NCBI GenBank assembly: GCA_017480975.1
Contig: JAFURK010000034.1
Span: forward strand, 1 to 58,113
Direction: 5' to 3'
From: Bacilli bacterium
GTDB lineage: Bacteria > Bacillota_I > Bacilli_A > RF39 > UBA660
Length of the DNA stretch: 58,113 bases
Part shown: one piece after another, positions 36,982-57,786 of the stretch
Position numbering within the stretch: the stretch's first letter is position 1
How the letters are laid out: every line of letters starts with the position of its first letter
Translations under genes and position numbers: made by a program
The notes under the pieces: generated by a model
Seen by the model: the letters and a program-made list of their open reading frames with translations, nothing else
The model's database searches: none
What the model was told of the DNA's origin: nothing

Positions 36982-37449
36982 TTACTCCTTTCCTTTATAA
37001 ATAATAGGCTTTATTATCATACCTTCCATCAACATATTAAGTACTGATATAACAACTGCAATAACAAACGGTATTATAAACCCTTGTATCTGAAAATTAT
37101 CTCCCAATATAAAACTAGTAATATATAATACTAATACATTGATAATAGGATAAAACAATCCCATCGAAAGAGCTGTAATAGGCAACGTTAAATAAAATAA
37201 TACCGGCTTAATAGTTTGATTTAGAATATATATTATAACTGCTGCTAATAAAGCATATAATCCATAATACTGATTATTAATATAAAAAGAATCCTTAAAC
37301 ATACAAGACACTGCTATTAAAACAATTGCATAACCTACCATATATAATAACCATTCAAAAATTTTATTATTTATCAATCTTTTAAAATGATTCTTCTCTT
37401 TGTTATTATCAGATTCATCAATTATAATAAGTTTTTTCAAACAAATCAT
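36982..37449 (-). CDS. Holin family 4 / DUF360 (YvlD-like) membrane protein
   Basis: 155 aa with 4 TM. GLFYPIINVLVLYITSFILGDNFQIQGF fits the DUF360 pattern. Its stop is 2 nt before the lgt start. Confidence 0.6.
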   Translation of the reverse strand: MICLKKLIIIDESDNNKEKNHFKRLINNKIFEWLLYMVGYAIVLIAVSCMFKDSFYINNQYYGLYALLAAVIIYILNQTIKPVLFYLTLPITALSMGLFYPIINVLVLYITSFILGDNFQIQGFIIPFVIAVVISVLNMLMEGMIIKPIIYKGKE

Positions 37450-37606: not shown

Positions 37607-38584
37607 TTAATCAATACTTCTATACAATCCTAATTTATTTAAAATGGGAAATAAAATCTCCAAATTATCTAACCTATCATTCAAAGGAGGTAACACTCCA
37701 AAAAAATTAATCCCTGTTTCAAAACTCAATTGTTTAACATCTTTATTACTCAATAAGGAACGATTTAAAATTACTTTTTGATCAGCAATTTTATTAAAAC
37801 AACGATTGTCTAACATCACCGCCTTATTAATCATTAAAGTTGAGGATTCCATTAAAAAAACAACATCAGAACAAACACTATAAACGGTAGCAAGATCCAA
37901 ATCATTTAAATCAATTAAAAGAACATTAACGCCTTTATATTTTAATAACAAATTATTTAATTCATTAGCTTTACAACTAATCATATCTTTATCATTAAAA
38001 AACATAAAATCTCGTTTATTAATTTCTATTGCTACAGTATAATAATTTTTTGATAACTGTTTCTTTAACATATAAATTAAACTAGTAGCTCCCGCATGAC
38101 TAGTAAAATTTTTTATTCCAATAATTTTAACTCCAGAATCGACTACATCGAAATTTTTATCAACACCGCCAACTTCAGGTGTCATCACCATAGAATACTC
38201 ATCAATTTTTTGTAAATGAGCTACATCCTTGTAACTATTAGGATTATCATATAAATATTTTAATTCATCTTCAGTTCGAGCAAAATTATAAATTCCCATA
38301 CTAATTAATTTAGAAATATAAGAATCAGAATTAACAACATTATTATCATTAGGTAAAAGTAATATTATTTTACTAACATCTAAACCTATAGATAAAGCCT
38401 TTAAATTATTAACATTAGTATAATCTTTAATTGATGTAATATCTAAAAACATTCTATTAAAGAAAAAATTAGAAAAAGACTGCACAATCTCATCAACAGT
38501 AAACTCTCCCGTAATAGACTTAATAACATCAATATCTAAATTAACAAATTTTTTACCATTCAAATTACTAACAATGACATTCAC
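37607..38584 (-). CDS. TadZ/CpaE-like protein: pseudo-receiver N-domain plus MinD/ParA-like domain with a degenerate Walker A
   Basis: 325 aa. The C-terminal half follows the MinD/ParA template: VKIIGIKNFTSHAGATSLIYML ... VLLIDLND ... DVVFLMESS ... VILNRS ... GVLPP. The P-loop reads SHAGATS instead of KGGxGKT. Confidence 0.55.
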   Translation of the reverse strand: MNVIVSNLNGKKFVNLDIDVIKSITGEFTVDEIVQSFSNFFFNRMFLDITSIKDYTNVNNLKALSIGLDVSKIILLLPNDNNVVNSDSYISKLISMGIYNFARTEDELKYLYDNPNSYKDVAHLQKIDEYSMVMTPEVGGVDKNFDVVDSGVKIIGIKNFTSHAGATSLIYMLKKQLSKNYYTVAIEINKRDFMFFNDKDMISCKANELNNLLLKYKGVNVLLIDLNDLDLATVYSVCSDVVFLMESSTLMINKAVMLDNRCFNKIADQKVILNRSLLSNKDVKQLSFETGINFFGVLPPLNDRLDNLEILFPILNKLGLYRSID

Positions 38585-38599
38585 TATTCTGCCTCCACT

Positions 38600-39001
38600 C
38601 TATGCGTTATTTATAATTTTTGTCTCACCACCAATAGGTATCGCAATACCTACATTAAACAAAGGAAAATCCATAACAATATAAGCAAAAACTTTATAAT
38701 AAGAACCACTATTCTTTGAAACTATACAAACACCATGCTCAGTTAAATTACCACCTTGAGAATTGCAATGTTCTAATACTTTAGGATACCTATCCTTCGG
38801 ATAAGAATATGCTACCTCATATAAATAAGCATCAATTTCCTCAACAGTATACCCTTTATTATGCTCTATGTAATTGACAACACCATTCTTCACTCTAAAT
38901 GTTTTTGCAAAACTAATTGAAACAGTCATAAAACAAATAAATATAACAAAAAAAGTCAAAATAATAGTTATAATAAAAGAACCACCAAAAGCATCTTTCA
39001 T
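38600..39001 (-). CDS. TadE-like prepilin / minor pilin candidate (paralog 2)
   Basis: 133 aa. It begins MKDAFG-GSFIITIILTFFVIFICFMTV, a short charged leader ending in Gly followed by a hydrophobic helix. It is a paralog of 39034-39459, with shared blocks FRVKNGV, YYKV..Y.V.DFP.FN and IPI.GET. Confidence 0.55.
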   Translation of the reverse strand: MKDAFGGSFIITIILTFFVIFICFMTVSISFAKTFRVKNGVVNYIEHNKGYTVEEIDAYLYEVAYSYPKDRYPKVLEHCNSQGGNLTEHGVCIVSKNSGSYYKVFAYIVMDFPLFNVGIAIPIGGETKIINNA

Positions 39002-39033
39002 CTTAAATCACCACCAAATAATAATAGAACATG

Positions 39034-39459
39034 TTAATAAGGTAAAACAATAACCTCTGTCTCGCCAGAAATTGGGATAACTGGATTATAATTAAAGAAC
39101 GGAAAATCAATAACTAAATAAAGAATAACTTTATAATATACTTCATTAGAACTAACTTCATTTCTAATAATACAAGCACCATTTTCAGAATAAAATCCAG
39201 ATTTAGAATCGCAATTACTTTTAGCACTAGGATATTGACTAGCCGGATAATTATAAGAAAAATTGCTTAAATAATTGTTAATATCATCCTCACTATCACT
39301 ACTACTATCATACTGCATTTGTTCCAAAATATCAATTACGCCATTCTTTACTCTAAAAACTCTCGCATAACTGGCAGCAATAGTCATGAAAGATACAAAA
39401 GCAACAATAAAAATTATAATAAGTTTAAACATAAAAGTACTTCCAAATGCATCTCTCAT
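39034..39459 (-). CDS. TadE-like prepilin / minor pilin candidate (paralog 1)
   Basis: The start is moved to the ATG at 39459 (GGTGAT SD), giving 141 aa. It begins MRDAFG-STFMFKLIIIFIVAFVSFMTI. Confidence 0.55.
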   Translation of the reverse strand: MRDAFGSTFMFKLIIIFIVAFVSFMTIAASYARVFRVKNGVIDILEQMQYDSSSDSEDDINNYLSNFSYNYPASQYPSAKSNCDSKSGFYSENGACIIRNEVSSNEVYYKVILYLVIDFPFFNYNPVIPISGETEVIVLPY

Positions 39460-39564
39460 CACTATCACCAACCTCAAAAAAAATAATTACAATCCTATTA
39501 ATAGATATTCCTAAATAAGACATACAAAAATAATTCTAACTAACCAATCCTATTATTTGCTTCT

Positions 39565-39741
39565 TTATAAATTTTGATTAGTACCATCAACATATTCAAT
39601 ATTATAACTAGTAAGATTGCTCCATTGATTTTCAACATATTTTTGAGCAAGTGGAACTAAAAATCTTACAACTCCAGCTATCAAAGCAATTGCCAAAATG
39701 GTAACTACTACCATACTTAATTCACCTGTAGATTCTTTCAC
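39565..39741 (-). CDS. Flp-like major pilin candidate (58 aa), not in the ORF track
   Basis: Minus strand reads GGAGG, 8 nt, then a GTG start. It encodes MKESTGELSMVVVTILAIALIAGVVRFLVPLAQKYVENQWSNLTSYNIEYVDGTNQNL, ending in TAA at 39565-39567. The short polar leader ends in Gly and is followed by a hydrophobic helix of about 20 aa. Its position directly after the platform genes is where flp sits in Tad loci. Confidence 0.6.
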   Translation of the reverse strand: MKESTGELSMVVVTILAIALIAGVVRFLVPLAQKYVENQWSNLTSYNIEYVDGTNQNL

Positions 39742-39778: not shown

Positions 39779-40573
39779 TTAAATACTAGAAAAAGACATT
39801 AACATAGAAACTAAAAGTAATATCATACCCCCGCCACCAGTAACAACTAACATTACCATAGTCATACTTTCCATTTTACTTAACCTATTTTTATATTTTT
39901 GTTCCCTAGATTTTTGTTGTAAACTAGAAACACTTTTAGAAAATGATATTAACTGAGTATGTTTTTTTTCTTGCTCCCCTAAACTTAAACGATAAAGTAA
40001 TCTCATCATCCTAACAGAATCTCTAACCGGATACATAGTTGCAAAATCCATATAAGGTTGAACTGAAGAATCACCAGCTTCAATCTTAGCAACCATAGCT
40101 TTCAATCCAGGCTTAAAAACTTCCGGAGCATCTTCAATACTTCTAGCAAGCGCAACTGGAACAGTATAATGTTGAATCAAAACTTCTAACCCTTTTAAAT
40201 AATAAGGAAGCAAAGAATCAACTTCATTCAAATGATTTTTATAATAAGTTTTCAAATTAAAATATTGTAATTTAAAAACTAAAAAACCAATAAGCAAACT
40301 AATTATTATATTTAAAAATGATAAACTAGAAATAAAGAAAAACATACATAAAATACTAACTAAAAAACCATTACGTACTCTTTTCATAAAAACAGCATCA
40401 ACATCATAAACTGCATCACCGTATTTAGATAAAAGTAAAAATTCATAATCACTTTCCTTTAACAAATTAAATAAGTCTTTATTATCTGCAACAAATTTTC
40501 CTGTACTAATTTTACCGCTGTAAAATAGTACTCCAAAAATAATTACACCTACTAATAATATCTCTATATACAT
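39779..40573 (-). CDS. tadC: Tad pilus platform protein, GspF/T2SSF-like (TadC-like)
   Basis: 264 aa. The topology (N-terminal TM, cytoplasmic helical domain, C-terminal TMs) fits T2SSF. Its ATG shares one base with the stop of the preceding paralogous gene. Confidence 0.65.
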   Translation of the reverse strand: MYIEILLVGVIIFGVLFYSGKISTGKFVADNKDLFNLLKESDYEFLLLSKYGDAVYDVDAVFMKRVRNGFLVSILCMFFFISSLSFLNIIISLLIGFLVFKLQYFNLKTYYKNHLNEVDSLLPYYLKGLEVLIQHYTVPVALARSIEDAPEVFKPGLKAMVAKIEAGDSSVQPYMDFATMYPVRDSVRMMRLLYRLSLGEQEKKHTQLISFSKSVSSLQQKSREQKYKNRLSKMESMTMVMLVVTGGGGMILLLVSMLMSFSSI

Positions 40574-41472
40574 TACTCAGCACCTACATTCTCATTATAA
40601 TATTTTTCCCCTTTAAGAAGAAAAAATGTATTTACAAGCACTAAAATATGTAACAAAACAACAATAATCGGATTATCTAACATAGCAATATAGCTATCAA
40701 CTCCTAGCAATAACTGAATAAGCATAACAATTCCATATAATGCAACACCAAATAAAAGAAATTGTTTGTGAAATTCAGCCCTATCCATTCTATCTCGATA
40801 AACTCCTTCTACTAATACGTCAATATCATTTAACATATTATCAAAAGTTTCCTCTGTATCCTTGGCACCTTCTTTGGTAACTTGTAAAAATAATTGATGC
40901 ATATTCTTTACCATAAAGAAAGGATATTTAGTATTCATATAAACTATCGAATCATTAACCTCCCCCTTCTCATATGATAAAGCTATCATAGTTTTAACAT
41001 CAGTTAAAACAGGATCTTCTAAAACACCAGATTCAACTACGCCTTCTAATGATTTTATAAATGCCTGAGTACTAGCAAATTCCATTATCGTATTTGTAAC
41101 ATAAACTTGAATTTGTTCAAAAATATATTCACTATATTGCCTCTTTGAACGCAAATAAGTAATGTATGGAATAAATGATATAGCAATAATTGCATAAACA
41201 ATTGAAACAAGCAAACTATAGAAATACATATAACCAACAACCCCTGCAATGCCAGCAAACAAAACTAACTGCGTAATATATTGTCTTGGAGTATAATCCA
41301 TTCCTAACTCTTTAATTTTCTTTCGCATTTCTTTATAAGAATAAGGTGCATATTTTCCATAAATATTATTAGCTTGTTCAGTAATAAACTTATAAACACC
41401 ATTTCCAGTACTTGAACGATAAGTAACAATAAATATTAATACAACACCAACTAGTAATACTGCTATTAACAC
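40573..41472 (-). CDS. tadB: Tad pilus platform protein, GspF/T2SSF-like (TadB-like)
   Basis: 299 aa with a GTG start (GAGGTGA SD). The topology matches its downstream partner, and it lies immediately after the secretion ATPase. Confidence 0.65.
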   Translation of the reverse strand: MLIAVLLVGVVLIFIVTYRSSTGNGVYKFITEQANNIYGKYAPYSYKEMRKKIKELGMDYTPRQYITQLVLFAGIAGVVGYMYFYSLLVSIVYAIIAISFIPYITYLRSKRQYSEYIFEQIQVYVTNTIMEFASTQAFIKSLEGVVESGVLEDPVLTDVKTMIALSYEKGEVNDSIVYMNTKYPFFMVKNMHQLFLQVTKEGAKDTEETFDNMLNDIDVLVEGVYRDRMDRAEFHKQFLLFGVALYGIVMLIQLLLGVDSYIAMLDNPIIVVLLHILVLVNTFFLLKGEKYYNENVGAE

Positions 41473-41476
41473 ATAA

Positions 41477-42808
41477 TCACCTCATTCCACTCTGACTATC
41501 ATTAAGACCATTATACAACATTTTTTCAGAATTAACAATATTAATATCTGAAAAATTTGAACTTAAATTAGAATTGCTTTGCGGATAAACACTTGAATTT
41601 TGAGAATAAATTTGTGGATTTTGAGAATAAATACCAGTATTTACACCAGCTAACTGTGAATAATTAGTATTAATGTTTTGAGAAGAAACTTGTGGATTCA
41701 CCCCAATATTTACCATATTGTTATTATTCATATTAGGGTTTACCTCTTTAAATTGTTCCTTAACTAATATATCAGCTTGCATAGAAACACCTTGACTTTC
41801 CAAATAACCTAATAAATACTTAGTTGGATTATTTATGGTGACATTTCCATCTGGAGTTTTTTTATACAAAATCTTATAATCTGGTTGATTATGGTCATCA
41901 ACAAAAAATTCAACAACCTCAGCAACTTCTCTTTTAAATCTCTGTAATTCAGGACTATAATATCCTTTTATATGCACACCTAATTGCACATATCTATGAA
42001 TACTTCTTAAAAATTGATCCATATCTATACTTGATTCAAGTAAACTATACAAACGACTAGGAATAGATTCAGCCTTATCAGCATGTATAGTTGAAAGTAT
42101 ATTATGACCAGAAGAAATAGAATCACGAACGGCCATAACTGCTTCAGCACTTCTAACCTCAGATAATAGTATCCACCTAGGATTTTGTCTCATACAAGTA
42201 ACCAAAACATCTGCATAACTTGCAATATTATTAGTTTTCATAGCTACAATATCCCGTTCAGGAAATATCTTATCCAAATGAAGTTCTAAAGTATCCTCAA
42301 TAGTAATAATCTTTTCATTATACTTAGTATGTGCTGCCATATACTTTACAAACTCAGTCTTACCACTACCAGTTTCTCCACTAACTAAAATATTACAATG
42401 GCCTTCTACACATTTTAACAGAAAATCATGAATATCTAACCTAATATAATCTTCTTGAATTATTTTATCTTTCTCTAATCTAATTTTAGCAGGAGTCTTA
42501 CGAATTAAAACTGCAATTCCATTACGAGCAATAGATTCATGAACAAAGTTCATACGCAATTCAGCACTTTCAGCATCCAAAAATGGATTGGCCATATTAA
42601 ATGACTTTCCCATCGAATTAGCACATTGAAAGGCCATTTTTTCCATAAAAGTATTATTTAAAGCAGGATTTTCAACTCTAAAAACTCCTTTAGACAATGT
42701 CTTTAACCAAACTTGTCCTCCATTACTATAGGAAATATCTGTTACATCATCATTATTCAAATATTCTTGAATTGGTCCAAAATCAACTTGTGTAAATTCA
42801 TTTTTCAT
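41477..42808 (-). CDS. tadA: CpaF/TadA-family type II/IV secretion ATPase with a C-terminal N/Q/S-rich extension
   Basis: 443 aa. Motifs: Walker A VSGETGSGKTE, Asp box ITIEDTLEL, Walker B RQNPRWILLSEVR and His box ILSTIHA. The last roughly 87 aa are low complexity (IYSQNPQIYSQNSSVYPQSNSN). Confidence 0.85.
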   Translation of the reverse strand: MKNEFTQVDFGPIQEYLNNDDVTDISYSNGGQVWLKTLSKGVFRVENPALNNTFMEKMAFQCANSMGKSFNMANPFLDAESAELRMNFVHESIARNGIAVLIRKTPAKIRLEKDKIIQEDYIRLDIHDFLLKCVEGHCNILVSGETGSGKTEFVKYMAAHTKYNEKIITIEDTLELHLDKIFPERDIVAMKTNNIASYADVLVTCMRQNPRWILLSEVRSAEAVMAVRDSISSGHNILSTIHADKAESIPSRLYSLLESSIDMDQFLRSIHRYVQLGVHIKGYYSPELQRFKREVAEVVEFFVDDHNQPDYKILYKKTPDGNVTINNPTKYLLGYLESQGVSMQADILVKEQFKEVNPNMNNNNMVNIGVNPQVSSQNINTNYSQLAGVNTGIYSQNPQIYSQNSSVYPQSNSNLSSNFSDINIVNSEKMLYNGLNDSQSGMR

Positions 42809-42817
42809 CTATATCAC

Positions 42818-43651
42818 CTATTGATTATTAGTTTCATTATTACTTACTTCATCAGAAGTACTAGATAAAATTTCATCAACTGATACCATTTCAGTTTTTT
42901 CATTAATAAAATCTTGAATATCCTTACTACTAACAAAAACAGCATCCTCAGCAGTTACTTCTTGAGTATTAGGAACCAAAATTAATTCAACATCATAGCT
43001 ACCAGCTAAATATATAGCTTTTCTAAATAACAAATGCATATCTTCAGGCAAAGCAAATAACATATATGCCGGAGTTCTAGCTTCTTGTGAATTTTCAAAA
43101 ACATGACGTCCAGATGAATCCTTAACATCCAAAATTTTTATATTACTTAAAAATTTACCAAACATAATAGTATTTTCATCACTTCTAGCTTTAAAATAAA
43201 TATTAATATAATCATCTGGCATCATACTGTTAGCATATGTACTATCCATATTAACCTTATAACTAATAACAGTCTCATTCTCAGCTACATCTAGAAAAGA
43301 AGAATTCGGTAATGTTGCAGACTCAACAACTAAATCAGTATAAAATATACTACCTTCAGCTATTACTGTATTGTAATCAGGATATTTCCCAATAATGTCT
43401 TCTCCACTTCTATAATAACTTCCTACCAAAAATGAAGTTGGAACATTCATATAAGAAATCATATCAGAAGTAATCTCAGTTCTAGGTTGAATAGTCTGAT
43501 TAGCATAAGGAACTTTAGTTAAAGCAACTTTTTTATTAATAGTAGAACTATAACCAAAATATAAAATTAAAATACACAAAAGAACCCCTAAGATGGTAAC
43601 AGTATTTTTATTACCAACAAATTTTTTTATAGAACTAGATAAATTACTCAT
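42818..43651 (-). CDS. cpaB: CpaB/RcpC-like pilus assembly protein (N-terminal TM plus SAF domain)
   Basis: 277 aa. It has a TM (VTILGVLLCILILYF). The SAF-like segment is KVPYANQTIQPRTEITSDMISYMNVP ... IIGKYPDYNTVIAEGSIFYTDLV. Confidence 0.6.
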   Translation of the reverse strand: MSNLSSSIKKFVGNKNTVTILGVLLCILILYFGYSSTINKKVALTKVPYANQTIQPRTEITSDMISYMNVPTSFLVGSYYRSGEDIIGKYPDYNTVIAEGSIFYTDLVVESATLPNSSFLDVAENETVISYKVNMDSTYANSMMPDDYINIYFKARSDENTIMFGKFLSNIKILDVKDSSGRHVFENSQEARTPAYMLFALPEDMHLLFRKAIYLAGSYDVELILVPNTQEVTAEDAVFVSSKDIQDFINEKTEMVSVDEILSSTSDEVSNNETNNQ

Positions 43652-43681: not shown

Positions 43682-44164
43682 TTAATTCCTAAGTTCTAAA
43701 ATTCCGCTAAGATTATTAACTAAATTAAACGAAGATTCATCACCACTAGTCGTCAAAACATAATCTTGAGTCTTACCAGTAATGACTACTGTAGCCTTTG
43801 GTGGCATCTCAATGATGTCATAAAATTGAATATTATATTCACTAACATCTCCCATTACACTAGCAGCAAAACGTCTAGTAAAATTTTCAACAAATTTTTG
43901 TTCAATAATTTTTAAATCATCATCGCCACATGCTTCTACAGTCTCAATAGTACCTTCATTGTTGAAAACCTCAGCTTTACCTTCTGAATCTCCAATTCTA
44001 TAACATACTAAATCAACCGACTCTAACATTGCAGCTTCCATTGCCTCTTTCAATACATAGTACTCAGATTCATTGTTAACTGTAATATCCTGAAACATAA
44101 CAATCAATATAAAACCTAACATCCCAAATAATATAAAACCTAAACTTAAATAAGCATATTTCAT
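43682..44164 (-). CDS. N-terminally anchored protein of unknown family (possible pseudopilin or assembly factor)
   Basis: 160 aa. It begins MKYAYLSLG-FILFGMLGFILIVMF and is followed by a soluble domain. I recognise no motif. Confidence 0.45.
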   Translation of the reverse strand: MKYAYLSLGFILFGMLGFILIVMFQDITVNNESEYYVLKEAMEAAMLESVDLVCYRIGDSEGKAEVFNNEGTIETVEACGDDDLKIIEQKFVENFTRRFAASVMGDVSEYNIQFYDIIEMPPKATVVITGKTQDYVLTTSGDESSFNLVNNLSGILELRN

Positions 44165-44182
44165 TTAAAATCACCACCACCA

Positions 44183-46765
44183 TTATTTAGTTGCATCACA
44201 AGCTGTAGAAAAAGTTCCAACTGGACAATAACTATTATCTATCCCTAATTTAGTCTTAAAATATCCAGAGAACTTACTAGTTATAAATTCATTACTACCT
44301 GTTTTAGTAATTGTTTGCATACTAGCATAACTAGAATCATTTGAATAATCATTCAATTCATTTATTCCTAACTTATCTCCAGAACTACCACCTTTGGCAA
44401 TTGTTACTTCATATAAAGGTTGACCACTATAATAAGCATCATAAGTACTCTTTAATCTAGTTTGATTATTTCCATCCGCCCACCATACTTGCCAATTTAC
44501 AGGAATAGAAGATGTATTTTTAAATGGTTTTTCAACATCAATAGAACGATAATTATAAGTTAATGCAATTTTATCTCCATCTCCATCGCCATCTTCATCT
44601 TTATAATAACTGTCATTAACATTAACATCACATGTTCCATTTAATTTCCAATCAAATTCAGAATACTCAACTAACAAACTAGGATTAATATTTTCAGCCA
44701 AATTAAACGGAAAATCTTCATCATAAACCCATTTAAAATCAACATAAAACCTTTGACCAGTCGCAACAGATTTCTCTTTCAAATCCTGTGTTGCATCCTC
44801 AGCCTTTTTTATATATTCAGCTTTACCAGCTTCATTACCTGTGATATAGATATAAGAATCAGCTAAACTATACGAATACTTATTTGTTGTATATTTACCA
44901 ACATTATTTGAACCATCACGAATAATATCCCTCTCTGGCGAAGTTTCATCCTTTTTCCAACTGCCATCAACCTCATAACCAGGATTATTTACATCACAGC
45001 TAGAAATATCATTACCATTGCAAGATTTATATTTTATATTTGAAATTGGATCACCATCTTCGACACCATCTTTAATCTTTTTCTGAACTTCTAAATCAAT
45101 CACCTCAAAAGCTGCTTCAGATATTCCAATAAATCCAGAACTACTTCCATCACTCTTAGTATATTTTGCTTTCGTATTATCATCTAAATAAACCGTTTGA
45201 GTAGAACACGAACCATTAGAATATACAGTTGTTTCATACTTATAATAAGGTATACCACTTTTAGTTTGTAAAGCATTTACCCAAGTAACCGTATTGTTAT
45301 AAAAAGTACCTTCTAACCCAAAACCTTTTCCAGCATAGATACCAGTACTATTATCAAAACCAGTTAACTCACCAAAATTAAATTCTGCCTCTTGTATCAA
45401 TAATACATTAATAGAAACTTTAATAGTATCAGAACCAGCACAAGTATTAAGTCTATTTTGTAATTTTACTTCACCAGATACATCTATTTTATTGTTTTTT
45501 CCTCCTATACATTGAAAATACTTACCATTAACAGGTGAACCACTACCACTTGATCCAGCATTATTTTCACAAACTACACTATTTTCTTTAACAGTACTTT
45601 TTGTTTCTCCACCAGTAAGTTGATCATAATAATCACATTCTCTTTGAACAATATTTTCTTTTAATTCTATTGTTAAACTTCCCGTAACAGATAACCAACT
45701 ACCAAATGCATAAAAAACACTACTACCATATCTATTAGATTTTACAAAACAATCATCAGTTACTTCACTAGCTTTCAAAGCATAGAGTACATCTTTCCAA
45801 CTTCTTCCAGTATCATAACTGTTTTGATAACTTCCAAGACTTCCTCGACTAGAAACTATGTAAGAGCCACTACTATTAAACACTTTATAAGTTCTACTAT
45901 TACCATCTTTACAAGTACCAGCACTAATTTTTTCACGACTAGTATTCCGGTATGCAATAGTTTCAGGAGCAATAGTAACAGAATCACTCATCCCACCAAT
46001 AGTTAACAAGAAATTTCCAACTTCATTTTCAGTGCCACAGCTTTTTTCATTAACCCAACAATTTTTTGTATATACACCTAATTCAGTCGAAAAATATGTA
46101 CCACCATATTCATCACTATGGCGATCAGAATAAAAACCGGCCTTATCATGCAAAACAATTCTAAAATGAATTTCTTCTTCACTTCCTAATTCATTAATTA
46201 ACTCATCTAAAGTAATACTAGCTCTAAACCCAACATTTTTGTAAGTACACCAAGCACCTGAAGCCCCATTAGTACAAGAATTCTTCCACTCGCTTTCTCT
46301 TACACCATCATAAGCTTTTTTACAATTTTCTTGAGCTTCAGTCGTACCATTACCATCGCTATCAGCTCTAGAACCAAAACAACGAGATTCAGACATATTT
46401 CTATCTGATTGTGTAACTCTCAGACGAACACTTTTACCAGTTACCTCATTTTCTTTGTAAGTTTTATCCCACTTTCCTACATAAGCTACCACATAAGTAT
46501 CAAAATTACCTCTTCCTCCATTAATACTACCAATATTATGTTGATGTTCAATAAAAGCATAACCATCAAAACTCAAGTTATTACCACTAATATTAAAACT
46601 TTCAACAGAATAAATAACTTTATGAGAAACATTATTTCCCCCAACAGACTCAATACACTCATCGTATGACGTACCTTCTCTACAATTATCTTGTCCTAAA
46701 ACAACATTAGGAAAAACAAACATAACCATAAACAAAAAACATATAAATTTTATCTTTTTTCTCAT
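44183..46765 (-). CDS. Large secreted Cys-containing protein of unknown family (candidate pilus-associated adhesin or substrate)
   Basis: 860 aa. The signal peptide is MRKKIKFICFLFMVMFVFPNVVLG-QD. Many Cys residues are spread through the sequence, with an acidic DEDGDGDGD patch and no C-terminal anchor. Its ATG overlaps the upstream stop by 4 nt. Confidence 0.6.
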   Translation of the reverse strand: MRKKIKFICFLFMVMFVFPNVVLGQDNCREGTSYDECIESVGGNNVSHKVIYSVESFNISGNNLSFDGYAFIEHQHNIGSINGGRGNFDTYVVAYVGKWDKTYKENEVTGKSVRLRVTQSDRNMSESRCFGSRADSDGNGTTEAQENCKKAYDGVRESEWKNSCTNGASGAWCTYKNVGFRASITLDELINELGSEEEIHFRIVLHDKAGFYSDRHSDEYGGTYFSTELGVYTKNCWVNEKSCGTENEVGNFLLTIGGMSDSVTIAPETIAYRNTSREKISAGTCKDGNSRTYKVFNSSGSYIVSSRGSLGSYQNSYDTGRSWKDVLYALKASEVTDDCFVKSNRYGSSVFYAFGSWLSVTGSLTIELKENIVQRECDYYDQLTGGETKSTVKENSVVCENNAGSSGSGSPVNGKYFQCIGGKNNKIDVSGEVKLQNRLNTCAGSDTIKVSINVLLIQEAEFNFGELTGFDNSTGIYAGKGFGLEGTFYNNTVTWVNALQTKSGIPYYKYETTVYSNGSCSTQTVYLDDNTKAKYTKSDGSSSGFIGISEAAFEVIDLEVQKKIKDGVEDGDPISNIKYKSCNGNDISSCDVNNPGYEVDGSWKKDETSPERDIIRDGSNNVGKYTTNKYSYSLADSYIYITGNEAGKAEYIKKAEDATQDLKEKSVATGQRFYVDFKWVYDEDFPFNLAENINPSLLVEYSEFDWKLNGTCDVNVNDSYYKDEDGDGDGDKIALTYNYRSIDVEKPFKNTSSIPVNWQVWWADGNNQTRLKSTYDAYYSGQPLYEVTIAKGGSSGDKLGINELNDYSNDSSYASMQTITKTGSNEFITSKFSGYFKTKLGIDNSYCPVGTFSTACDATK

Positions 46766-47406
46766 TCTAACACTCTTCTCTTTCTCATTCTAAGAAAAGC
46801 GACTATAATTACAACTAAAAGAACAACTCCTCCAAGAATAAATAAATAATAATTACTTAAAAAATCAACAACTTTATTAATAAAACTTCCATTATCATCA
46901 TTATCATTATCGTCATTTAAATAAGAATTAACTACTTTATAAAAATACTCATCATTAATTTCTGCTTGATAATTAGAATCACATACATCTAAATTATATT
47001 CTTCCAATTCTTTACATTCTTTTCTTAAAGAATATACATTAAATTTAGGAAGATTAAAAGAAAACTTTTTCAATAAAATATCTCGACACCTAGTAGAATA
47101 AACCTTAAGCACATTGTTTCCCGATGAAAGTATCAGCTCTAATACACCATTTTCAATCTGATTATAATAATATTCATTTCCATCACCATCAACTATATAT
47201 AATTGTTCATTTAACCCCCGCACATAAACATAATACAAATTATATATCCCTTCTTCTCCTACAACTACTTCATAATCATATTCAACATAACTAGCTAATT
47301 CCTTTAAATTATCAATTTCTTCTTTATCACACATAAGCGCATCTACACTTAAATTAAATCCAAATAAAGAAAAGCAAAAAACAAACATCAACTTTAATAT
47401 TTTCAT
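46762..47406 (-). CDS. Secreted, C-terminally membrane-anchored protein of unknown family; first gene of the Tad-like operon
   Basis: 214 aa. It has a signal peptide, an ectodomain of about 150 aa with 5 Cys, and a DDNDNDDN linker. A TM (LFILGGVVLLVVIIVAF) and an RMRKRR tail follow. Confidence 0.55.
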   Translation of the reverse strand: MKILKLMFVFCFSLFGFNLSVDALMCDKEEIDNLKELASYVEYDYEVVVGEEGIYNLYYVYVRGLNEQLYIVDGDGNEYYYNQIENGVLELILSSGNNVLKVYSTRCRDILLKKFSFNLPKFNVYSLRKECKELEEYNLDVCDSNYQAEINDEYFYKVVNSYLNDDNDNDDNGSFINKVVDFLSNYYLFILGGVVLLVVIIVAFLRMRKRRVLE

Positions 47407-47476
47407 ATCAGCCTCCTACTATTATCATAATAATACCATTTTTTCTAGAAAAATAAAAGACTTTTACTCTATAAAA

Positions 47477-47515
47477 AGAAAAAAATTGTAACTTTTGTGC
47501 CAAAAAATTACAATT
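47477..47515 (-). terminator. Strong rho-independent terminator after obg, insulating the Tad-like operon
   Basis: Minus strand reads AAUUGUAAUUUUUUG-GCA-CAAAAGUUACAAUU (about 14-bp stem) followed by UUUUUUU. Confidence 0.8.
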
Positions 47516-47552
47516 CAAATAATCAAAAATCTTACAATAACCTTAATAAATT

Positions 47553-48924: not shown

Positions 48925-49872
48925 TCATTCTATAATTTCATCAATAATATATTTAGGCCTACGCTTTGTTTCTAAATAAATTTTTGATATATATTCACCT
49001 ATAACCCCAATACAAAATATTTGAAAACTTCCAAAAAAACATACCAAAGCAATAATCGTAACCCAACCATTCACAACATCTGCTCCCCTAAAATAACTAA
49101 TAATTACATACATCAAATAAATAAAACTTAAAAAAGAAAAAATAATTCCTATTCCAATAATAAATCTAATAGGCTTAATACTAAAAGAAGTAATTCCATC
49201 AATAGCAAGCCCTAACATTTTTCTTAAATTATATTTACTACTTCCTGCTTTCCTATCCAAACGTTTATAATAAACTTTACTAGTTTGAAACCCAAGTTTA
49301 GGTATAATTCCTCGTATAAATAAATTACTCTCCTCATATCTTGATAATTCCTCTAAACTTCTTTTACTCATCAATCTAAAATCTGCATGATTATTAATAA
49401 TTTCCCCGCCTAAAAAAGACATAACTTTATAAAAAACTAAAGCCGAATTCCTTTTAAACCAACTATCATTATCCCTATTATTTCTAACCCCATAAACAAT
49501 TTCATTACCTTTATAATATTCATCTATCATATCATCAATAGCATTTATATCATCTTGTAAATCAGCATCCATCGTAATAATCATATCAACATTCTTTCTA
49601 GTTTCCATAATACCAGCATACATAGCAAATTGATGCCCAAAATTTCTAGATAACTTTATAATCATTAAAAACTTATTTTTTAATTGTAATTTTTTCACAA
49701 TATTAATTGTATTATCCTTACTTCCATCATCAACAATAACTATTTTACTCTTTTTACTTATCTTATTACTGCGAATTAATTGATTTAATTTTTCACTAAT
49801 AACCTTAATACTATTTTCAATTACCTCTTCTTCATTATAACATGGCACTACAATATGCAAAATATCATTCAT
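48925..49872 (-). CDS. GT2 polyprenyl-phosphate glycosyltransferase (GtrB/CsbB-like) with two C-terminal TM helices
   Basis: The start is moved to the ATG at 49872 (GGAGG SD, ATGA overlap with the upstream stop). Motifs: VVPCYNEEE, DDGSKD and DADLQDD. Confidence 0.85.
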   Translation of the reverse strand: MNDILHIVVPCYNEEEVIENSIKVISEKLNQLIRSNKISKKSKIVIVDDGSKDNTINIVKKLQLKNKFLMIIKLSRNFGHQFAMYAGIMETRKNVDMIITMDADLQDDINAIDDMIDEYYKGNEIVYGVRNNRDNDSWFKRNSALVFYKVMSFLGGEIINNHADFRLMSKRSLEELSRYEESNLFIRGIIPKLGFQTSKVYYKRLDRKAGSSKYNLRKMLGLAIDGITSFSIKPIRFIIGIGIIFSFLSFIYLMYVIISYFRGADVVNGWVTIIALVCFFGSFQIFCIGVIGEYISKIYLETKRRPKYIIDEIIE

Positions 49873-51046
49873 TAAAACCTCCATAAGTATCACTAGCTCT
49901 AACATAAAATTTCATAATAAATTTAACAATAAATTTAGGCCAAATTTTTTCAAACATAATAATATCTTCTTTTAAACGTTCTTTACTATTAATAAACTCA
50001 ACCGTAGTCGCTTCATCATGAATTCTATAACAAATTAATTTCTTACTAATATAACCAATTTTTCCTTTACCTTTAGCAAATTTCAAAAAAGTATCCCAAT
50101 CTAAAGAAAATTTAAGTTTTGATGTAAATATATTATTACTTCCTAATAACAATTTATTGTAAGTTACCGAAGGACAATTAATGCTATTCCCAAACGATAA
50201 CGCCCCAACTTTAAACCATTTTAATCCATTAAATAGAGAAAATCTTAATGGAAATTTTAATATTCTTTTTAACTTACTATTTATATCTAATTCTTTTTTA
50301 TTATCTTTTAATACATAATAATCAGTACAAAGAAATAAAACATTATTATTAAATTGATAAAATTTTAAAATTTGTTCTAAATAATTTTTTTCATAAATAT
50401 CATCTTGATGAACAATAGTAACTAAATCACTATTAGCTTTTCTATACCCAAAATTCCAATCCTTTTGAATATCACTTTTTCCTTTTCGAACATATAAATG
50501 AATTTTATATTTTATAGCCATTCTATTAATAAAATCATTATCAGTAGAAGTAACCATAATAATATTAGAAGATACAGTCTGATTAATCAAAGATAAAATA
50601 CACTGTTCCAAATATCTACATTCCTTATAGGCACAAATAACAAAAGTATGAGAATACTTCTTTTTAACTACTCCAAAAGTCCAAAACTTACTTAACAAAT
50701 AATTATAAGGAACAGTTATTATCAAAGTAATAATAGGAGCAATTGTATTCGAAATATTTAAAATGTCAACCCATAAATACATACAGAACATATTAATTAC
50801 AAAAGAAGATAAATAAATTATATAATACTTCTTTATACTACCATTTCTACTTCTAAAAACAAAGTTTTTATTAAAACCATATGATATAAAACATGAACAA
50901 ATATAAGCAATAAAATTAGAAATTAAATAATTAATATTAAAATATAATAGTATATAATAAATAATTAAAGAATTGCATGTATTAAATATACCTACTATTC
51001 CAAACCTAATAATTTGAAAAAAATTACTTTTTATAAACTTAAACAC
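49865..51046 (-). CDS. Fusion of a GtrA-like 4-TM domain with a GT2 glycosyltransferase domain
   Basis: 393 aa. The N-terminal roughly 125 aa fit GtrA (FGIVGIFNTCNSLIIYYIL ... SKFWTFG). The C-terminal part is FVICAYKECRYLEQCILSLINQT ... HQDD, a GT2 fold. Confidence 0.7.
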   Translation of the reverse strand: MFKFIKSNFFQIIRFGIVGIFNTCNSLIIYYILLYFNINYLISNFIAYICSCFISYGFNKNFVFRSRNGSIKKYYIIYLSSFVINMFCMYLWVDILNISNTIAPIITLIITVPYNYLLSKFWTFGVVKKKYSHTFVICAYKECRYLEQCILSLINQTVSSNIIMVTSTDNDFINRMAIKYKIHLYVRKGKSDIQKDWNFGYRKANSDLVTIVHQDDIYEKNYLEQILKFYQFNNNVLFLCTDYYVLKDNKKELDINSKLKRILKFPLRFSLFNGLKWFKVGALSFGNSINCPSVTYNKLLLGSNNIFTSKLKFSLDWDTFLKFAKGKGKIGYISKKLICYRIHDEATTVEFINSKERLKEDIIMFEKIWPKFIVKFIMKFYVRASDTYGGFNE

Positions 51047-51417
51047 TTCTAAAACACCTCTAAATCCATTTTAATACAATCAATTAGTACAAACATAAAA
51101 ATACTTATATTCCTCAATTAATTTATAATTATCAATCATATAATCTAAAATTTGTTCATTCAATTGACATCCTCCATCATCATAATGTCAATTAGAAACA
51201 AAAAATACACAACTATATATTATCAATTTCAATAATATATCTATTTGCTCCATCATATCCAAAATTATCATTATTTAAAAGATCAAACTTATTAATTGAC
51301 ATATTTCAATATAAATTAAAAAATAACAAATGACAAATGATAATAATAAAAATTAAACAAAATAATAAAATATATCTTAACCATTTTCTTTAATAAAATT
51401 CATAAAAAGCACTCCCA

Positions 51418-54099
51418 TCAATTAATAAAACCATATACATAAATGTAAAAAAATACACCTAAAAATACTAAATAATAACAACAATTAAAAATTTTAAGAA
51501 TAATGCTATTTGGAACAAACTTAAACTTTACAAAAATTAATAATAGCAATAACGATATAATTGAAATAATACCACTTTCTTTCAAATAAGAAGGATAATA
51601 TGTTAATACTACTTTATTAGCTCCATCACTAAGAGGAATAGAAACAAAATTATCTAAAATTTTTTCAATTTTAACTTTCTTACCATTCACTTCACAATTA
51701 TAATTACTAGAATAATTAATTGGTAAAAATAAATTTTTATTGTTTCCTTCAGCATTAACTTCTGCAAACAATTTATTTTTATCAAAATTTACTTCAACAT
51801 TACTTTTATACTCAATAATTAAATCATTCATTTTTTTTATATTTATTTTTGAAAATTCAAAATCTTTTATACAAAAATCTTTATATAAAGACATAGTAAC
51901 TTTTATTTTTTTATCTTCATATGCACCTAAATCAACAATTCCAGAACTAGAAATAAATTTCTTATTAAAACTATCATTAACATTAGAATTATATATGAAA
52001 CCATCATTAACCTTTATATAATTAATTTGAAAAAGTTTATCCATTCCCTTATATTTTTTCTTATCTTTTCCAACATAAATTATAGAATCATAATCAAAAT
52101 ATAATTCACTAAGTTCAGAAACTGTTAAATAAAAACTAAATTCAGTATCTTCCTTAGCGCAAATATCATTTTCATCTAAATATGCACTATTTGAATCCAC
52201 TAAAAATTCAAAATCAATATCTTCTAAAATACTATCTTCCTTATTAAATAACTTTTGATAAATTTCATTTTGATAATTCAATAAATTATCTTCACCCTCA
52301 TAATAATTAAAAGAATCAAAAACTAAACCATAACCTAAAAAGGAATTTAATTCATACAAATTAACATTATTATCATTATCAATCAAATTATAAACTCTAC
52401 TATCCAATTCCTCATTTGAAATATAACGATTAATTCCTAATAAATTATCCGTAAATAAAGTACCGTCGCGATCAGTAGTAGAAGTAAATGGCGTAGCATA
52501 CCCTAAATTATCCAAAGAATCACTACTATTGGAATCATTCATATGCCAATTACTAATAGTTGATTTACTTAAAATAAAACCATAATTTTCAATCATATCA
52601 ACATTTAAATTTTTATATCTAATTTCTTCATTTATATCATCTTTTAAAAAATTATATAAATTATTACCAATATTAAAAGAATAATTGGTTGATTCTTTCG
52701 ACAATTCGGGCGAACTTATTCCAATATAACTAAGAGACCACCCAATACAACAAACACCTAAAAATAAAACTAATAAAGAATACTTTAAATATACATTTCT
52801 CAATAATAAAATTGAATAAACTAAAAATAAACCTAAAATAGAAATTAATAAAGCATTAAACATTACTTCATAAGAACCTAATCTTAATGATGGATCACTA
52901 GCAGCACTAACTGGAATATGCTTAGTAAACAAATATATCAAAAATATAAAAATCAAAAATATGTATATATAATAATTTTTACTTTTTTTAAATTGCAAAC
53001 TTTCATTAAATTGCAAATAATACAAAGCCCCTAAATATAAAACCATTACAACTATAAAACTATATCTATAAGGAAATTCTGCATAACTACCGGTATGCCA
53101 CATTAAATTGATTGGATTAAAAATTACTCCAACTAAAAATATTATAAATAAATACAAATAAAATCTTCTAATTTTTTTATTTCCCCTTTTCGATTTTAAC
53201 ATAATCATAAAAAGAATAATTGGTAATCCATAAAACAATACAATCATTAATTTATCTGCCATATCTCCAAAAAGATATTTTCCAAAATCTATTGAAGCTC
53301 TTACAGAATTAAATACCCGAACTATTGTAGGTAAAACAAAAACCAGTGCTAATCCTAAAGTCAAAATAGTACCTATCCCCAATTTATAAATAAACATCTT
53401 TTTATCTTCTTCTTTACATAAAAACACCAAATAACCAAATGATAAGAATAATATAAATAATAATTCCATATAAGCAATATAAAAAGAATAAATAATAGAT
53501 AAAAATAATATAATCGTATATAATCTATAATCACCATTATCAATAATTTTCTTAAATCCTAATAACAAAATGGGAAATAAAATTACATTATCTAACCAAA
53601 CAAAATTTGTATGATAAACAATAACCCACCCACTAAATGCATATAAAACACTAAATAAAATTTTCCAATAAATATTAAGCTTTTTATATACTTTATCAAA
53701 CATAAAAAAAGAAGTAACCGAAAGCAAACATAATCTTATTACAAATAAATATGACATAAAATTAGGAATATTGCTTCTAGAAGTTAAAGTTAAAAGCCAA
53801 TTTACCGGTGACAATATTCCATAAATAGAAATTAAATCATACATATCAGTACCTAAACCCACCTTAAAATTTATAAAAATACTTTCATTTCCATTAAACA
53901 AATCATACATATAATAATAAATTGGTAAATATGCCTTTCCAAAATCTCCATTAACCAAAGTATTTTTTCCAAACGGATAAACATCATTTATAAAATATAC
54001 AATTGTTATCAAGAATAATACAATAATAGGAGATATCAGAAATTTAATTCTACTTTTATCAAGATTTTTAAACTTATTATACACATTTATTTTTCTCAT
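51418..54099 (-). CDS. YfhO-family polytopic membrane glycosyltransferase (GT-C-like)
   Basis: 893 aa with more than 12 N-terminal TM helices, a large extracytoplasmic domain and a terminal TM. Size, topology and the neighbouring CsbB-like GT2 match the CsbB/YfhO pairing. Confidence 0.7.
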   Translation of the reverse strand: MRKINVYNKFKNLDKSRIKFLISPIIVLFLITIVYFINDVYPFGKNTLVNGDFGKAYLPIYYYMYDLFNGNESIFINFKVGLGTDMYDLISIYGILSPVNWLLTLTSRSNIPNFMSYLFVIRLCLLSVTSFFMFDKVYKKLNIYWKILFSVLYAFSGWVIVYHTNFVWLDNVILFPILLLGFKKIIDNGDYRLYTIILFLSIIYSFYIAYMELLFILFLSFGYLVFLCKEEDKKMFIYKLGIGTILTLGLALVFVLPTIVRVFNSVRASIDFGKYLFGDMADKLMIVLFYGLPIILFMIMLKSKRGNKKIRRFYLYLFIIFLVGVIFNPINLMWHTGSYAEFPYRYSFIVVMVLYLGALYYLQFNESLQFKKSKNYYIYIFLIFIFLIYLFTKHIPVSAASDPSLRLGSYEVMFNALLISILGLFLVYSILLLRNVYLKYSLLVLFLGVCCIGWSLSYIGISSPELSKESTNYSFNIGNNLYNFLKDDINEEIRYKNLNVDMIENYGFILSKSTISNWHMNDSNSSDSLDNLGYATPFTSTTDRDGTLFTDNLLGINRYISNEELDSRVYNLIDNDNNVNLYELNSFLGYGLVFDSFNYYEGEDNLLNYQNEIYQKLFNKEDSILEDIDFEFLVDSNSAYLDENDICAKEDTEFSFYLTVSELSELYFDYDSIIYVGKDKKKYKGMDKLFQINYIKVNDGFIYNSNVNDSFNKKFISSSGIVDLGAYEDKKIKVTMSLYKDFCIKDFEFSKINIKKMNDLIIEYKSNVEVNFDKNKLFAEVNAEGNNKNLFLPINYSSNYNCEVNGKKVKIEKILDNFVSIPLSDGANKVVLTYYPSYLKESGIISIISLLLLLIFVKFKFVPNSIILKIFNCCYYLVFLGVFFYIYVYGFIN

Positions 54100-55742: not shown

Positions 55743-56123
55743 TTAAGATAAATCCTTGATTTTCCTATTAACAACACCTATCTTACTTTCTAAACTTTCT
55801 ATATCCTTTTTTAAGGCATTAACCTTATCTTCTAACACTTTCTTATTACTTTCCAAATCAGTACCTTCCTTTAAGATAATCTCATATTGACTTATCAACT
55901 GCTTATATACTTCAATATCTTCCATTAAATCTTCATATTCATCCCTTAAAGAATTTAATCTATTACTTTCATTTTGGCACTGATAATACCCCCAAATTTG
56001 ATAACTAAAAAATCCAATTATTCCAAAAAGAACACCCCCCAATATTAATTGTAAATTTTTATACTTATTCCTATCACTTAACTTATATCTTGATTTCTTT
56101 TTATTCCTTTTTATCCTCTTCAT
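55743..56123 (-). CDS. Small bitopic coiled-coil protein
   Basis: 126 aa with a basic N-terminus, one TM and a heptad-rich ectodomain. Its ATG shares one base with the upstream stop. Confidence 0.5.
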   Translation of the reverse strand: MKRIKRNKKKSRYKLSDRNKYKNLQLILGGVLFGIIGFFSYQIWGYYQCQNESNRLNSLRDEYEDLMEDIEVYKQLISQYEIILKEGTDLESNKKVLEDKVNALKKDIESLESKIGVVNRKIKDLS

Positions 56124-57160: not shown

Positions 57161-57786
57161 ACCTCAACATCTCTAATTTTCAAAACATTATTATCGTTAT
57201 AAAAAGTATATAAATAACTATTTCCATTTTCATAATTAACTATTGCCTTAATATCTTCCCCACTAGTATAAACAGAAACATTTGATATTAAAAATTCAAA
57301 TCTATCATTAGCATAATCACTCAACGATACATAATTATCAATTATACAAACATCATTATTAATAATACTAAAATCACTAATACCAAAATAAAAATCTGTT
57401 ATCTCATAAATAATATCTAAATTTACATAATCCAAAGTCAAATTCTCAATACCATCTTTATCAACATATAAACAATTATCTAATTTCTTTAAACCTTCAG
57501 AATAATATTCCTTATTATCTAAAACATAATCTAAAGCAAAATGAACCAAAAAATCATAATTATCTCTTAACACATCTGAATACATAAAACTACTATTCGG
57601 AATAATAAAATCATCTATATTGCTTAAATAAATCTCAATATCCTTTTCCAACGCCTCATAATCATTCTTATAAAAAAGAACAGAATTATCTATATCATAA
57701 GAATAAGCAAAAGACGTATTAAATACTTCACTTCCCAATAAAGCAATTCCACCAATTAACAATAAAACTAAAAATATCTTCTTCAT
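57151..57786 (-). CDS. Secreted protein of unknown function
   Basis: 211 aa with an N-terminal signal peptide. Overlaps the downstream gene by 10 nt. Confidence 0.5.
   Translation of the reverse strand: MKKIFLVLLLIGGIALLGSEVFNTSFAYSYDIDNSVLFYKNDYEALEKDIEIYLSNIDDFIIPNSSFMYSDVLRDNYDFLVHFALDYVLDNKEYYSEGLKKLDNCLYVDKDGIENLTLDYVNLDIIYEITDFYFGISDFSIINNDVCIIDNYVSLSDYANDRFEFLISNVSVYTSGEDIKAIVNYENGNSYLYTFYNDNNVLKIRDVEVWL

Follow-up and report, generated by a model that had tools for sequence, protein, structure and literature searches.

What is the function of three adjacent envelope-protein genes that stand at the head of an operon for a type IV filament machine? The question is raised by contig JAFURK010000034.1 (assembly GCA_017480975.1; Bacilli bacterium, GTDB lineage RF39; UBA660), whose entire 58,113 nucleotides were analysed and are referred to here as the window; its nearest named relative is an Erysipelotrichaceae metagenome-assembled genome (MAG). 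The genes lie on the minus strand and encode, in the order of transcription, a protein of 214 amino acids (p214, 46762-47406), a protein of 860 amino acids that we named BIG (44183-46765), and a protein of 160 amino acids (p160, 43682-44164) that belongs to the family DUF5411. The reading that we favour, to which we assign slightly less than an even chance, is that this trio is a variable pilus-associated adhesin module, working like PilY1 or like the 'Tip' of Kil pili, with DUF5411 as the adaptor. It is preferred because the trio is associated with the machine and inherited as a unit, because BIG diverges over fixed cysteines and a fixed C-terminus, and because adhesin-type insertions and a redox partner were found. 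A first-pass annotation of the same DNA had put forward three roles (a tip adhesin with its membrane tether, a wall-spanning module, and a secreted substrate), and the first of these is favoured in view of the rate at which BIG evolves, the duplicated and detached copies of the module, and one homolog with SpaA domains.

Inspection of the open reading frames (ORFs) and of the sequence agreed with the layout given in that annotation. The stop codon of p214 overlaps the start codon of BIG by 4 nt (ATGA at 46762-46765, context ...GAATGAGA...), and the gaps to the following genes in the trio region are 18 nt and 30 nt. The topologies proposed for the 214-, 860- and 160-residue proteins were likewise recovered by hydropathy analysis. 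An AT-rich intergenic region of 146 nt (47407-47552, minus strand) separates p214 from obg; it contains an AGGAGG ribosome-binding site upstream of p214 and a promoter-like match, TTGTAA-17-TACAAT (47513-47485), which scores no better than chance. The window has a GC content of approximately 28%, and the genes are all on the minus strand. The earlier description of the three proteins as orphans that match no family had to be revised in part: the 160-residue protein is a clear DUF5411 member, and it is only for the 860- and 214-residue proteins that no curated family was found in Pfam, NCBIfam or PHROGs. Even these two are not orphans otherwise, as BIG has 59 relatives and p214 has syntenic homologs at 25-41% identity.

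p214, BIG and DUF5411 are one co-inherited unit. Related loci were gathered in two ways, using DUF5411 as an anchor and, separately, using distant BIG relatives (25-30% identity), and the gene order was the same whichever way a locus had been found. Approximately 17 independent loci, from gut Erysipelotrichaceae or Bacilli MAGs, carry p214, BIG and DUF5411 followed by the Tad-like machine, and a p214-like gene holds the identical position in every related locus. Where enough flanking sequence is available, the full order is p214-like gene, BIG family gene (708-1058 aa), DUF5411, CpaB-like gene, T2SSE ATPase, two polytopic membrane proteins, a pilin of approximately 50-60 aa, one or two minor-pilin-like proteins and a soluble protein of approximately 320 aa. 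BIG relatives are flanked by DUF5411 and the T2SSE ATPase wherever flanking sequence exists, which makes the link between trio and machine a real one; orthologs occurring mainly without adjacent tad genes, named in the first-pass annotation as an outcome that would speak against its proposal, are not what was found. One locus (L012) contains two tandem trios. All three parts of its copy a are nearest to those of L004, and all three parts of copy b are nearest to those of L006/L007; since all parts of each copy track one lineage, two cassette types coexist at this locus, each inherited as a unit. At another locus (L013), the trio stands alone between tilS/ftsH and parA/parB, away from the machine genes. 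The gene upstream of the trio varies: it is obg in the window and in four other loci, yunB in two, and a divergent thioredoxin-like gene in 6-7; as the upstream gene is divergent there, the transcription unit of these loci begins with p214. The loci with a taxonomic name come from Erysipelotrichaceae, Bacilli or Firmicutes MAGs, save three labelled Muribaculaceae. These three (L012, L016 and L017, 'uncultured Muribaculaceae') nevertheless carry a Firmicute-type operon, and the obg of L012 is 83% identical to that of the window; the contigs are probably mis-binned or mislabelled.

Each protein was then compared with its window copy across 13 loci, and identity drops from the cytoplasmic toward the outermost parts. 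It amounts to 81-86% for obg, 68-90% for the ATPase, 54-86% for the two polytopic proteins p299 and p264, 46-78% for the CpaB-like protein, 42-74% for p325, 34-68% for DUF5411, 30-80% for the pilins, 25-41% for p214 and 21-33% for BIG, the last often over part of its length only. BIG is the fastest-evolving protein of the operon, and, judging from sequence, its divergence is the pattern that would be expected of an exposed, diversifying surface protein. Despite this divergence BIG is constrained, having 11 conserved cysteines and a conserved C-terminal motif.

BIG (44183-46765, minus strand) is a beta-rich and cysteine-rich protein that is predicted to be Sec-exported and to lack an anchor, based on the ORF, 59 relatives (alignment A1) and an AlphaFold (AF2) model. 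Hydropathy analysis detected a single hydrophobic segment, located at the N-terminus (aa 4-26); the protein contains 21 cysteines, and neither an LPXTG motif nor a C-terminal transmembrane segment is present. The signal peptide (aa 1-24, MRKKIKFICFLFMVMFVFPNVVLG; 46694-46765, minus strand) was delimited by hydropathy and by the consensus MKK...PNxVxA observed over 45 homologs. The leader appears to be of the Sec type and not a prepilin leader: the N-terminus reads MRKKIKF...VVLG|QD and differs from the MK[DE]xxG leader of the operon's pilin-like proteins p58, p147 and p133. When BIG and p214 were aligned by hhalign, the signal peptides were the sole matching part.

Scanned exhaustively with HMMER, 1.84 billion cluster representatives yielded 59 relatives of BIG at E<=1e-3, 16 of which reach E<=1e-30. 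These are 25-41% identical to BIG, most of the full-length ones have 700-1060 aa, and many distant ones align in the C-terminal region alone. BIG matched nothing in Pfam, NCBIfam or PHROGs (with no Pfam or NCBIfam hit at E<=1), a word-indexed homolog search returned only BIG itself, and a second search, with an alignment of the C-terminal domain, returned nothing. A well-known family unrelated to pili, which the first-pass annotation had regarded as the other adverse outcome, was not encountered for BIG in Pfam, NCBIfam, PHROGs, PDB or BFVD. No match to BIG was obtained by tblastn in collections of plasmids and phages, so that an origin from a mobile element or a phage tail is without support.

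The best-conserved part of BIG in the alignments is its C-terminal region (aa 660-860; 44186-44788, minus strand). The hallmark of this region is Y-R-[STP]-I-x4-P-F-P ... N-W, which is invariant or near-invariant across homologs and is represented in the window by YRSIDVEKPF (aa 739-748, nt 44522-44551) and IPVNW (aa 754-758, nt 44492-44506). Even a protein of L016 that was missed by the BIG hidden Markov model has YRPISLKDPFP...SNW. A terminal cysteine motif, C-x2-G-x5-C, was also identified (C847-x2-G850-x5-C856). R740, F748, N757, W758 and G850 are invariant in the homologs and C712, C847 and C856 near-invariant; the 11 cysteines kept in >=82% of homologs are Cys129, 164, 173, 236, 243, 377, 399, 419, 712, 847 and 856. 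Within this region, an acidic patch, DEDGDGDGD (aa 723-731; 44573-44599, minus strand, found by regular expression), is encoded by an in-frame hexanucleotide tandem repeat that Tandem Repeats Finder reports as an array at 44573-44600 with a period of 6 and 4.7 copies. In homologs this position is occupied by linkers that are rich in D/G/P and vary in length. Apart from the in-frame hexamer repeat, no phase-variation signals were found.

Scanning of the 45 homologs for known domains revealed that one (P0127) contains two SpaA prealbumin-like domains (E 3e-32), and other homologs gave weak VWA, TED and WxL matches, one of them a weak N-terminal VWA. SpaA, VWA, TED and WxL are domain types of Gram-positive surface adhesins. 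The BIG of the window itself contains no SpaA, Cna or TED domain, and an enzyme or toxin domain was found in none of the 45 homologs. The AF2 model built from the 45-sequence alignment is mostly beta (predicted local distance difference test, pLDDT, 78.1; predicted template-modelling score 0.69; the single-sequence model had a pLDDT of 33). The pLDDT is above 90 over much of aa 440-720 and falls to 53-72 from approximately aa 720 on, so that the most conserved stretch of the protein is the least confidently modelled one. The low values at the conserved C-terminus are consistent with a partner-dependent interface, without proving one. The top hits of whole-chain Foldseek searches with this model (among them immunoglobulins, pore-forming toxins and bunyavirus glycoproteins) were discarded as noise, their query-normalised template-modelling scores being <=0.11. 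PDB profile searches gave nothing meaningful for BIG, p214, DUF5411, p325 or the CpaB-like protein.

The product of the first gene, p214 (46762-47406, minus strand), is predicted to be a type I bitopic membrane protein from its ORF, hydropathy and a 14-sequence alignment (A4). It has a signal peptide (aa 1-23, ending ...VDA), an ectodomain of approximately 150 aa with conserved C26, C107, C131 and C142 and the motifs LPKFNxYS and CDxWYQG, an acidic linker, a C-terminal transmembrane segment at approximately aa 185-205 (hydropathy segment 179-209), and a tail, RMRKRRVLE, with the family consensus RKRxVL[ED]. The syntenic homologs are 25-41% identical to p214, those in L004 and L006 36-41%. No match to p214 was found in Pfam, NCBIfam, PHROGs or PDB. 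Although p214 has a C-terminal transmembrane segment and a basic tail, as sortase substrates do, LPXTG is absent, the LPXTG_anchor model gave E 0.38, and GG_III-CTERM scored 21 bits against a cutoff of 22.

The third protein, p160 (43682-44164, minus strand), was assigned to DUF5411 (PF17424) by Pfam, with 120.4 bits against a gathering threshold of 30 (E 6.5e-35), and was further described by alignment A3 and hydropathy as a bitopic protein. It has >338 relatives, and all the homologs listed carry PF17424. A single N-terminal transmembrane segment with invariant G14 and G17 is followed by an almost invariant juxtamembrane helix, NNESEYYVLKEAMEAAMLESVD, a conserved C54-C79 pair and a small C-terminal alpha/beta part. 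The DUF5411 gene contains a 24-nt tandem duplication (44094-44143, minus strand; 2.1 copies, 84% match) that encodes GFIL..GFIL of the transmembrane helix, including the invariant G14 and G17. DUF5411 gave no PilN/O or GspM similarity in Pfam, NCBIfam or the PDB profile search, and no Pfam or NCBIfam hit to a secretin domain or to the TPR lipoprotein TadD was obtained for any protein of the trio.

A membrane-anchored thioredoxin-like protein of approximately 150 aa, with an N-terminal transmembrane segment and the CxxC motif CSHC, is PedC/TraF-like and is encoded divergently beside p214 in six loci, on the minus strand (L008, 353-796; L010, 5223-5669; L015, 6692-7147; L017, 5704-6186; L019, 474-911; L020, 37-486), with a fragment in a seventh (L009, 52-219). 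Together with the conserved cysteines of BIG, DUF5411 and p214, this neighbour argues for oxidative folding outside the cell. The window has no adjoining thioredoxin-like gene; a distant relative of 239 aa with CPWC lies 38 kb away (5125-5844, minus strand).

The machine that follows the trio is encoded on the minus strand as well. Its first gene encodes a CpaB/RcpC-like bitopic protein (p277, 42818-43651), which was recognised below threshold only (TIGR03177, E 4.2e-5, 22.9 bits against a cutoff of 71; PF16976, E 0.013); L011 (10691-12432) and L018 (10987-12755) each have two CpaB-like paralogs in tandem. The next gene encodes a TadA/CpaF-type secretion ATPase (p443, 41477-42808) with a T2SSE domain (PF00437, E 7e-26, 91 bits against a cutoff of 24.9) and CpaF as the best PDB match (8.5e-19), its NCBIfam scores being far below the equivalog cutoffs. 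Two polytopic platform proteins, p299 and p264 (39779-41472), are TadB/TadC-like by position; the window copies have no Pfam hit, and p264 orthologs in L009 and L014 gave weak T2SSF matches (E 0.047 and 0.077) that cover almost the whole profile. A Flp-sized pilin candidate, p58, and two minor-pilin-like proteins, p147 and p133 (38600-39741; alignments A5 and A6, hydropathy), all begin with a leader that is unusually short, MK[DE]xxG, and continue into a hydrophobic helix. p58 starts with MKESTG|ELSMVVV and lacks the Flp EY motif (G/XXXXEY), its Glu being at +1 rather than +5, and none of the three gave a Pfam TadE or Flp hit. The last gene encodes the soluble p325 (37607-38584), which is TadZ-like by position only and has no Pfam, NCBIfam or PDB match. 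This machine is related to the Clostridial DUF5411 operons that were flagged in 2022; the canonical tad operon of Bulleidia (PMC12786226) was also considered and is a different type of locus. Right after p325 and before lgt and trxB there is a gene for a 155-aa Phage_holin_4_2 membrane protein (36982-37449, minus strand), found at the matching position in the same-species contigs L001 and L002.

From these data we infer surface display and adhesion for BIG, docking by its C-terminus, and individual roles for its two partners. BIG would cross the membrane by the Sec route and, having approximately 11 conserved cysteines, would be oxidatively folded. The N-terminal and central beta-domains of BIG, which diversify rapidly, would face outside as an adhesin or receptor-binding head, and its conserved C-terminal ~200 residues (YR[STP]I....PFP...NW and the terminal Cys-loop) may dock to the machine or the filament. 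DUF5411 would be a bitopic adaptor that links BIG either with the conserved parts of the envelope or with the filament, at its base or its tip, and p214 could be a membrane tether or a dedicated chaperone, whose short conserved cytoplasmic tail might report to the cytoplasmic side.

The closest functional parallels come from two known tip systems. PilC/PilY1 tip adhesins use a beta-strand at their C-terminus to dock to a minor pilin of the PilK family (PMC13533445). For docking of this kind and a place at the pilus tip, BIG offers indirect hints, namely its conserved C-terminus of low pLDDT and its weak co-variation with DUF5411. Like these proteins (~1000 aa), BIG with its 860 aa is large, Sec-exported and not a pilin, has a variable N-terminal and a conserved C-terminal part, and is encoded within the pilus cluster beside small membrane-helix proteins; additionally, its acidic Asp/Gly patch might correspond to a Ca site, and the homolog with the weak N-terminal VWA adds to the resemblance. 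However, BIG and its 45 homologs lack the PilY1/PilC C-terminal domain in Pfam, no beta-propeller was found by Foldseek, BIG has as neighbours DUF5411 and a type I membrane protein instead of PilK/GspK-like minor pilins, and the host is a monoderm with a Tad-like machine. In the Kil/Tad pili of Myxococcus, the 'Tip' is encoded by interchangeable, paralogous, disulfide-rich three-gene clusters (PMC12075869). The trio resembles this TadE/TadF/TadG (KilL/M/N) 'Tip', as well as CpaL/TadG (PMC13533445), in being a three-gene unit with a Tad-type machine, in having alternative or paralogous copies inside and outside the main cluster, in its many conserved cysteines, and in its large member with a variable distal part. 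The tip proteins of Kil/Tad pili resemble pilins, having class III leaders and alpha1-N helices, whereas BIG and p214 have ordinary Sec signal peptides, and DUF5411 has neither the MK[DE]xxG leader of the operon's pilins, nor profile similarity to them, nor a TadE hit. Membership of BIG in the PilY1 or the TadG/CpaL/KilN family was rejected, as no PilY1 domain, prepilin leader or TadE domain is present. BIG also resembles the sortase-anchored SpaA/CnaB adhesins in being beta-rich, multidomain and secreted, with two SpaA domains in one homolog, but neither LPXTG nor any other signal for wall sorting occurs in it, and among the genes of the operon no sortase was noted.

DUF5411 operons with a predicted 'secretion-related' function had been reported from Roseburia, Ruminococcus and Eubacterium (Miller et al. 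2022, PMC9523054). These uncharacterised operons of gut Firmicutes, which were described by computation only, resemble the present one in that DUF5411 shares an operon with a CpaF-like ATPase and a PilC/GspF-like platform, but a 478-aa or 151-aa 'internalin-like' protein and tiny ORFs are listed there, and the BIG and p214 families are not. The presence of DUF5411 with Tad-like genes had thus been noted before, whereas no description of the BIG family, of the p214 family, of their behaviour as a cassette or of the thioredoxin-like link was found in the literature searched.

Several points weigh against the adhesin module. The location of BIG on the filament or the cell surface is a prediction, BIG carries no wall anchor by hydropathy or motif, its docking is purely hypothetical, and when PDB and BFVD were searched by Foldseek with the whole chain no hit reached E<=1e-3, and hence no adhesin- or PilY1-like fold was found. 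DUF5411 is about as conserved as the core machine parts, and the Clostridial DUF5411 systems lack BIG (PMC9523054), so that DUF5411 may be a component of the machine and not a BIG-specific adaptor; moreover, hhalign detected no profile similarity between DUF5411 and the minor-pilin-like proteins of the operon. Co-variation was analysed by partial Mantel tests with machine divergence removed, on the small basis of 10 loci and with several comparisons. The C-terminus of BIG and DUF5411 gave a weakly positive result (r 0.43, p about 0.03), which lends weak support to DUF5411 as the link between BIG and the machine; DUF5411 also co-varies with the CpaB-like protein and p325, and the value for BIG and p214 was about zero. 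The stoichiometric co-production with the machine that the first-pass annotation had suggested is conjectural, and in L013 the trio is separate from the machine genes. Finally, that annotation had spoken of a pilus operon, and the comparisons support this in a restricted sense only: the downstream machine is, as far as its genes can be compared, a divergent and only loosely Tad-like type IV filament system, with a CpaF-like ATPase, T2SSF and CpaB matches below threshold, and no prepilin peptidase found nearby. The peptidase motif GxGD[VIAFLM]K was not found in a real ORF of the window or of L001-L019, the single match falling in a spurious 25-aa frame; the peptidase may be encoded elsewhere in the genome.

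The alternative that survives best, which we nevertheless regard as unlikely, is that the trio is a structural sub-complex of the envelope, in which BIG would form a wall-spanning collar or conduit replacing the diderm secretin/RcpB/TadD set, and DUF5411 and p214 would act as PilN/PilO/GspL-M-like alignment proteins. The near machine-level conservation of DUF5411, its co-variation with the CpaB-like protein and p325, and its occurrence in Clostridial Tad-like operons (PMC9523054) would be in agreement with such a role, as would the tight coupling of the trio directly before the CpaB-like gene. Moreover, the filament of a monoderm must cross thick peptidoglycan, and no other candidate for this was identified in the operon. 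However, the data argue against a conserved conduit and thus against the wall-spanning module of the first-pass annotation: BIG diverges far faster than all the machine proteins and pilins, its length varies between 708 and 1058 aa and domains such as SpaA are inserted in it, and the module is found duplicated as two divergent types (L012) and detached (L013), which is atypical of a fixed conduit. No secretin, PilN/O or GspM similarity was found either.

Less probable still is that BIG is cargo which a Tad-like pseudopilus pushes through the wall or releases, as in type II secretion (T2SS), with p214 and DUF5411 as membrane escorts. A monoderm has no outer membrane to cross, and T2SS-like export is not known to be established in monoderms. 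The Sec signal and the lack of an anchor in BIG would suit a secreted substrate, as would the strict association with the machine, and the conserved C-terminal region could serve as a recognition signal, but a conserved domain of 200 residues with dedicated bitopic partners suits stable docking better than a transient signal. Similarly, a 2022 language-model study (natural language processing) labelled the DUF5411 operons 'secretion-related', but SpaA-type stalk domains point to a cell-associated adhesin, and the 45 homologs contain no enzyme or toxin domain. The least probable alternative, an independent surface-protein system merely beside the Tad-like genes and with no functional link to them, could draw on the L013 trio adjoining no machine gene, on the varying upstream neighbours (obg, thioredoxin-like, yunB) and on the interaction being putative, but it is opposed by an adjacency that all the other examined loci preserve, even where BIG identity is as low as 25%, by the small intergenic gaps to the machine genes, and by the independent linkage of DUF5411 to CpaF/PilC-like genes in Clostridia.

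The favoured adhesin module would make the trio a module that serves a type IV filament as an accessory or as its tip, assembled from unrelated parts in a monoderm, and not a categorically new system. A more far-reaching version of it, which we consider rather doubtful, is that the trio represents a new way of arming a monoderm filament: an exchangeable, Sec-delivered and disulfide-stabilised adhesin cassette, in which DUF5411 would take a PilK/TadG-type minor-pilin role, p214 would function in loading or signalling, and one conserved machine would be directed to different surfaces of the gut by different types of cassette. Little is established on the build or the targets of Tad-type filaments in Gram-positive gut bacteria, and the lineages described here are uncultured. 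If the adhesin reading is correct, DUF5411 would gain a function, two new families of extracellular proteins would be defined, each identifiable by its signature motif, and the PilY1/Kil-Tip principle would have a monoderm counterpart made from unrelated parts. The reading would also offer a handle on host or partner specificity in the abundant gut Erysipelotrichales-like Bacilli, with the hypervariable head of BIG as a natural candidate for recognition and for a phage or antibody target.

Some further features of the window were observed beyond the operon. Genes for YfhO (893 aa), for a GtrA-GT2 fusion and for a glycosyltransferase of the GT2 type are clustered upstream of obg (49865-54099, minus strand); the cluster looks like a module for the glycosylation of wall polymers, and it may be relevant to what the filament must cross. 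Another trio upstream of obg, consisting of p211, a Peptidase_C39_2 protein of 345 aa whose N-terminal part is a coiled coil, and p126, is present both in the window (55743-57786, minus strand) and in L004 (2642-4677). The GC skew is strongly negative throughout positions 1-58113 (-0.30 to -0.55 per 2 kb) and virtually all substantial ORFs of the 58-kb window are on the minus strand, so that gene orientation appears to track a single replication direction.

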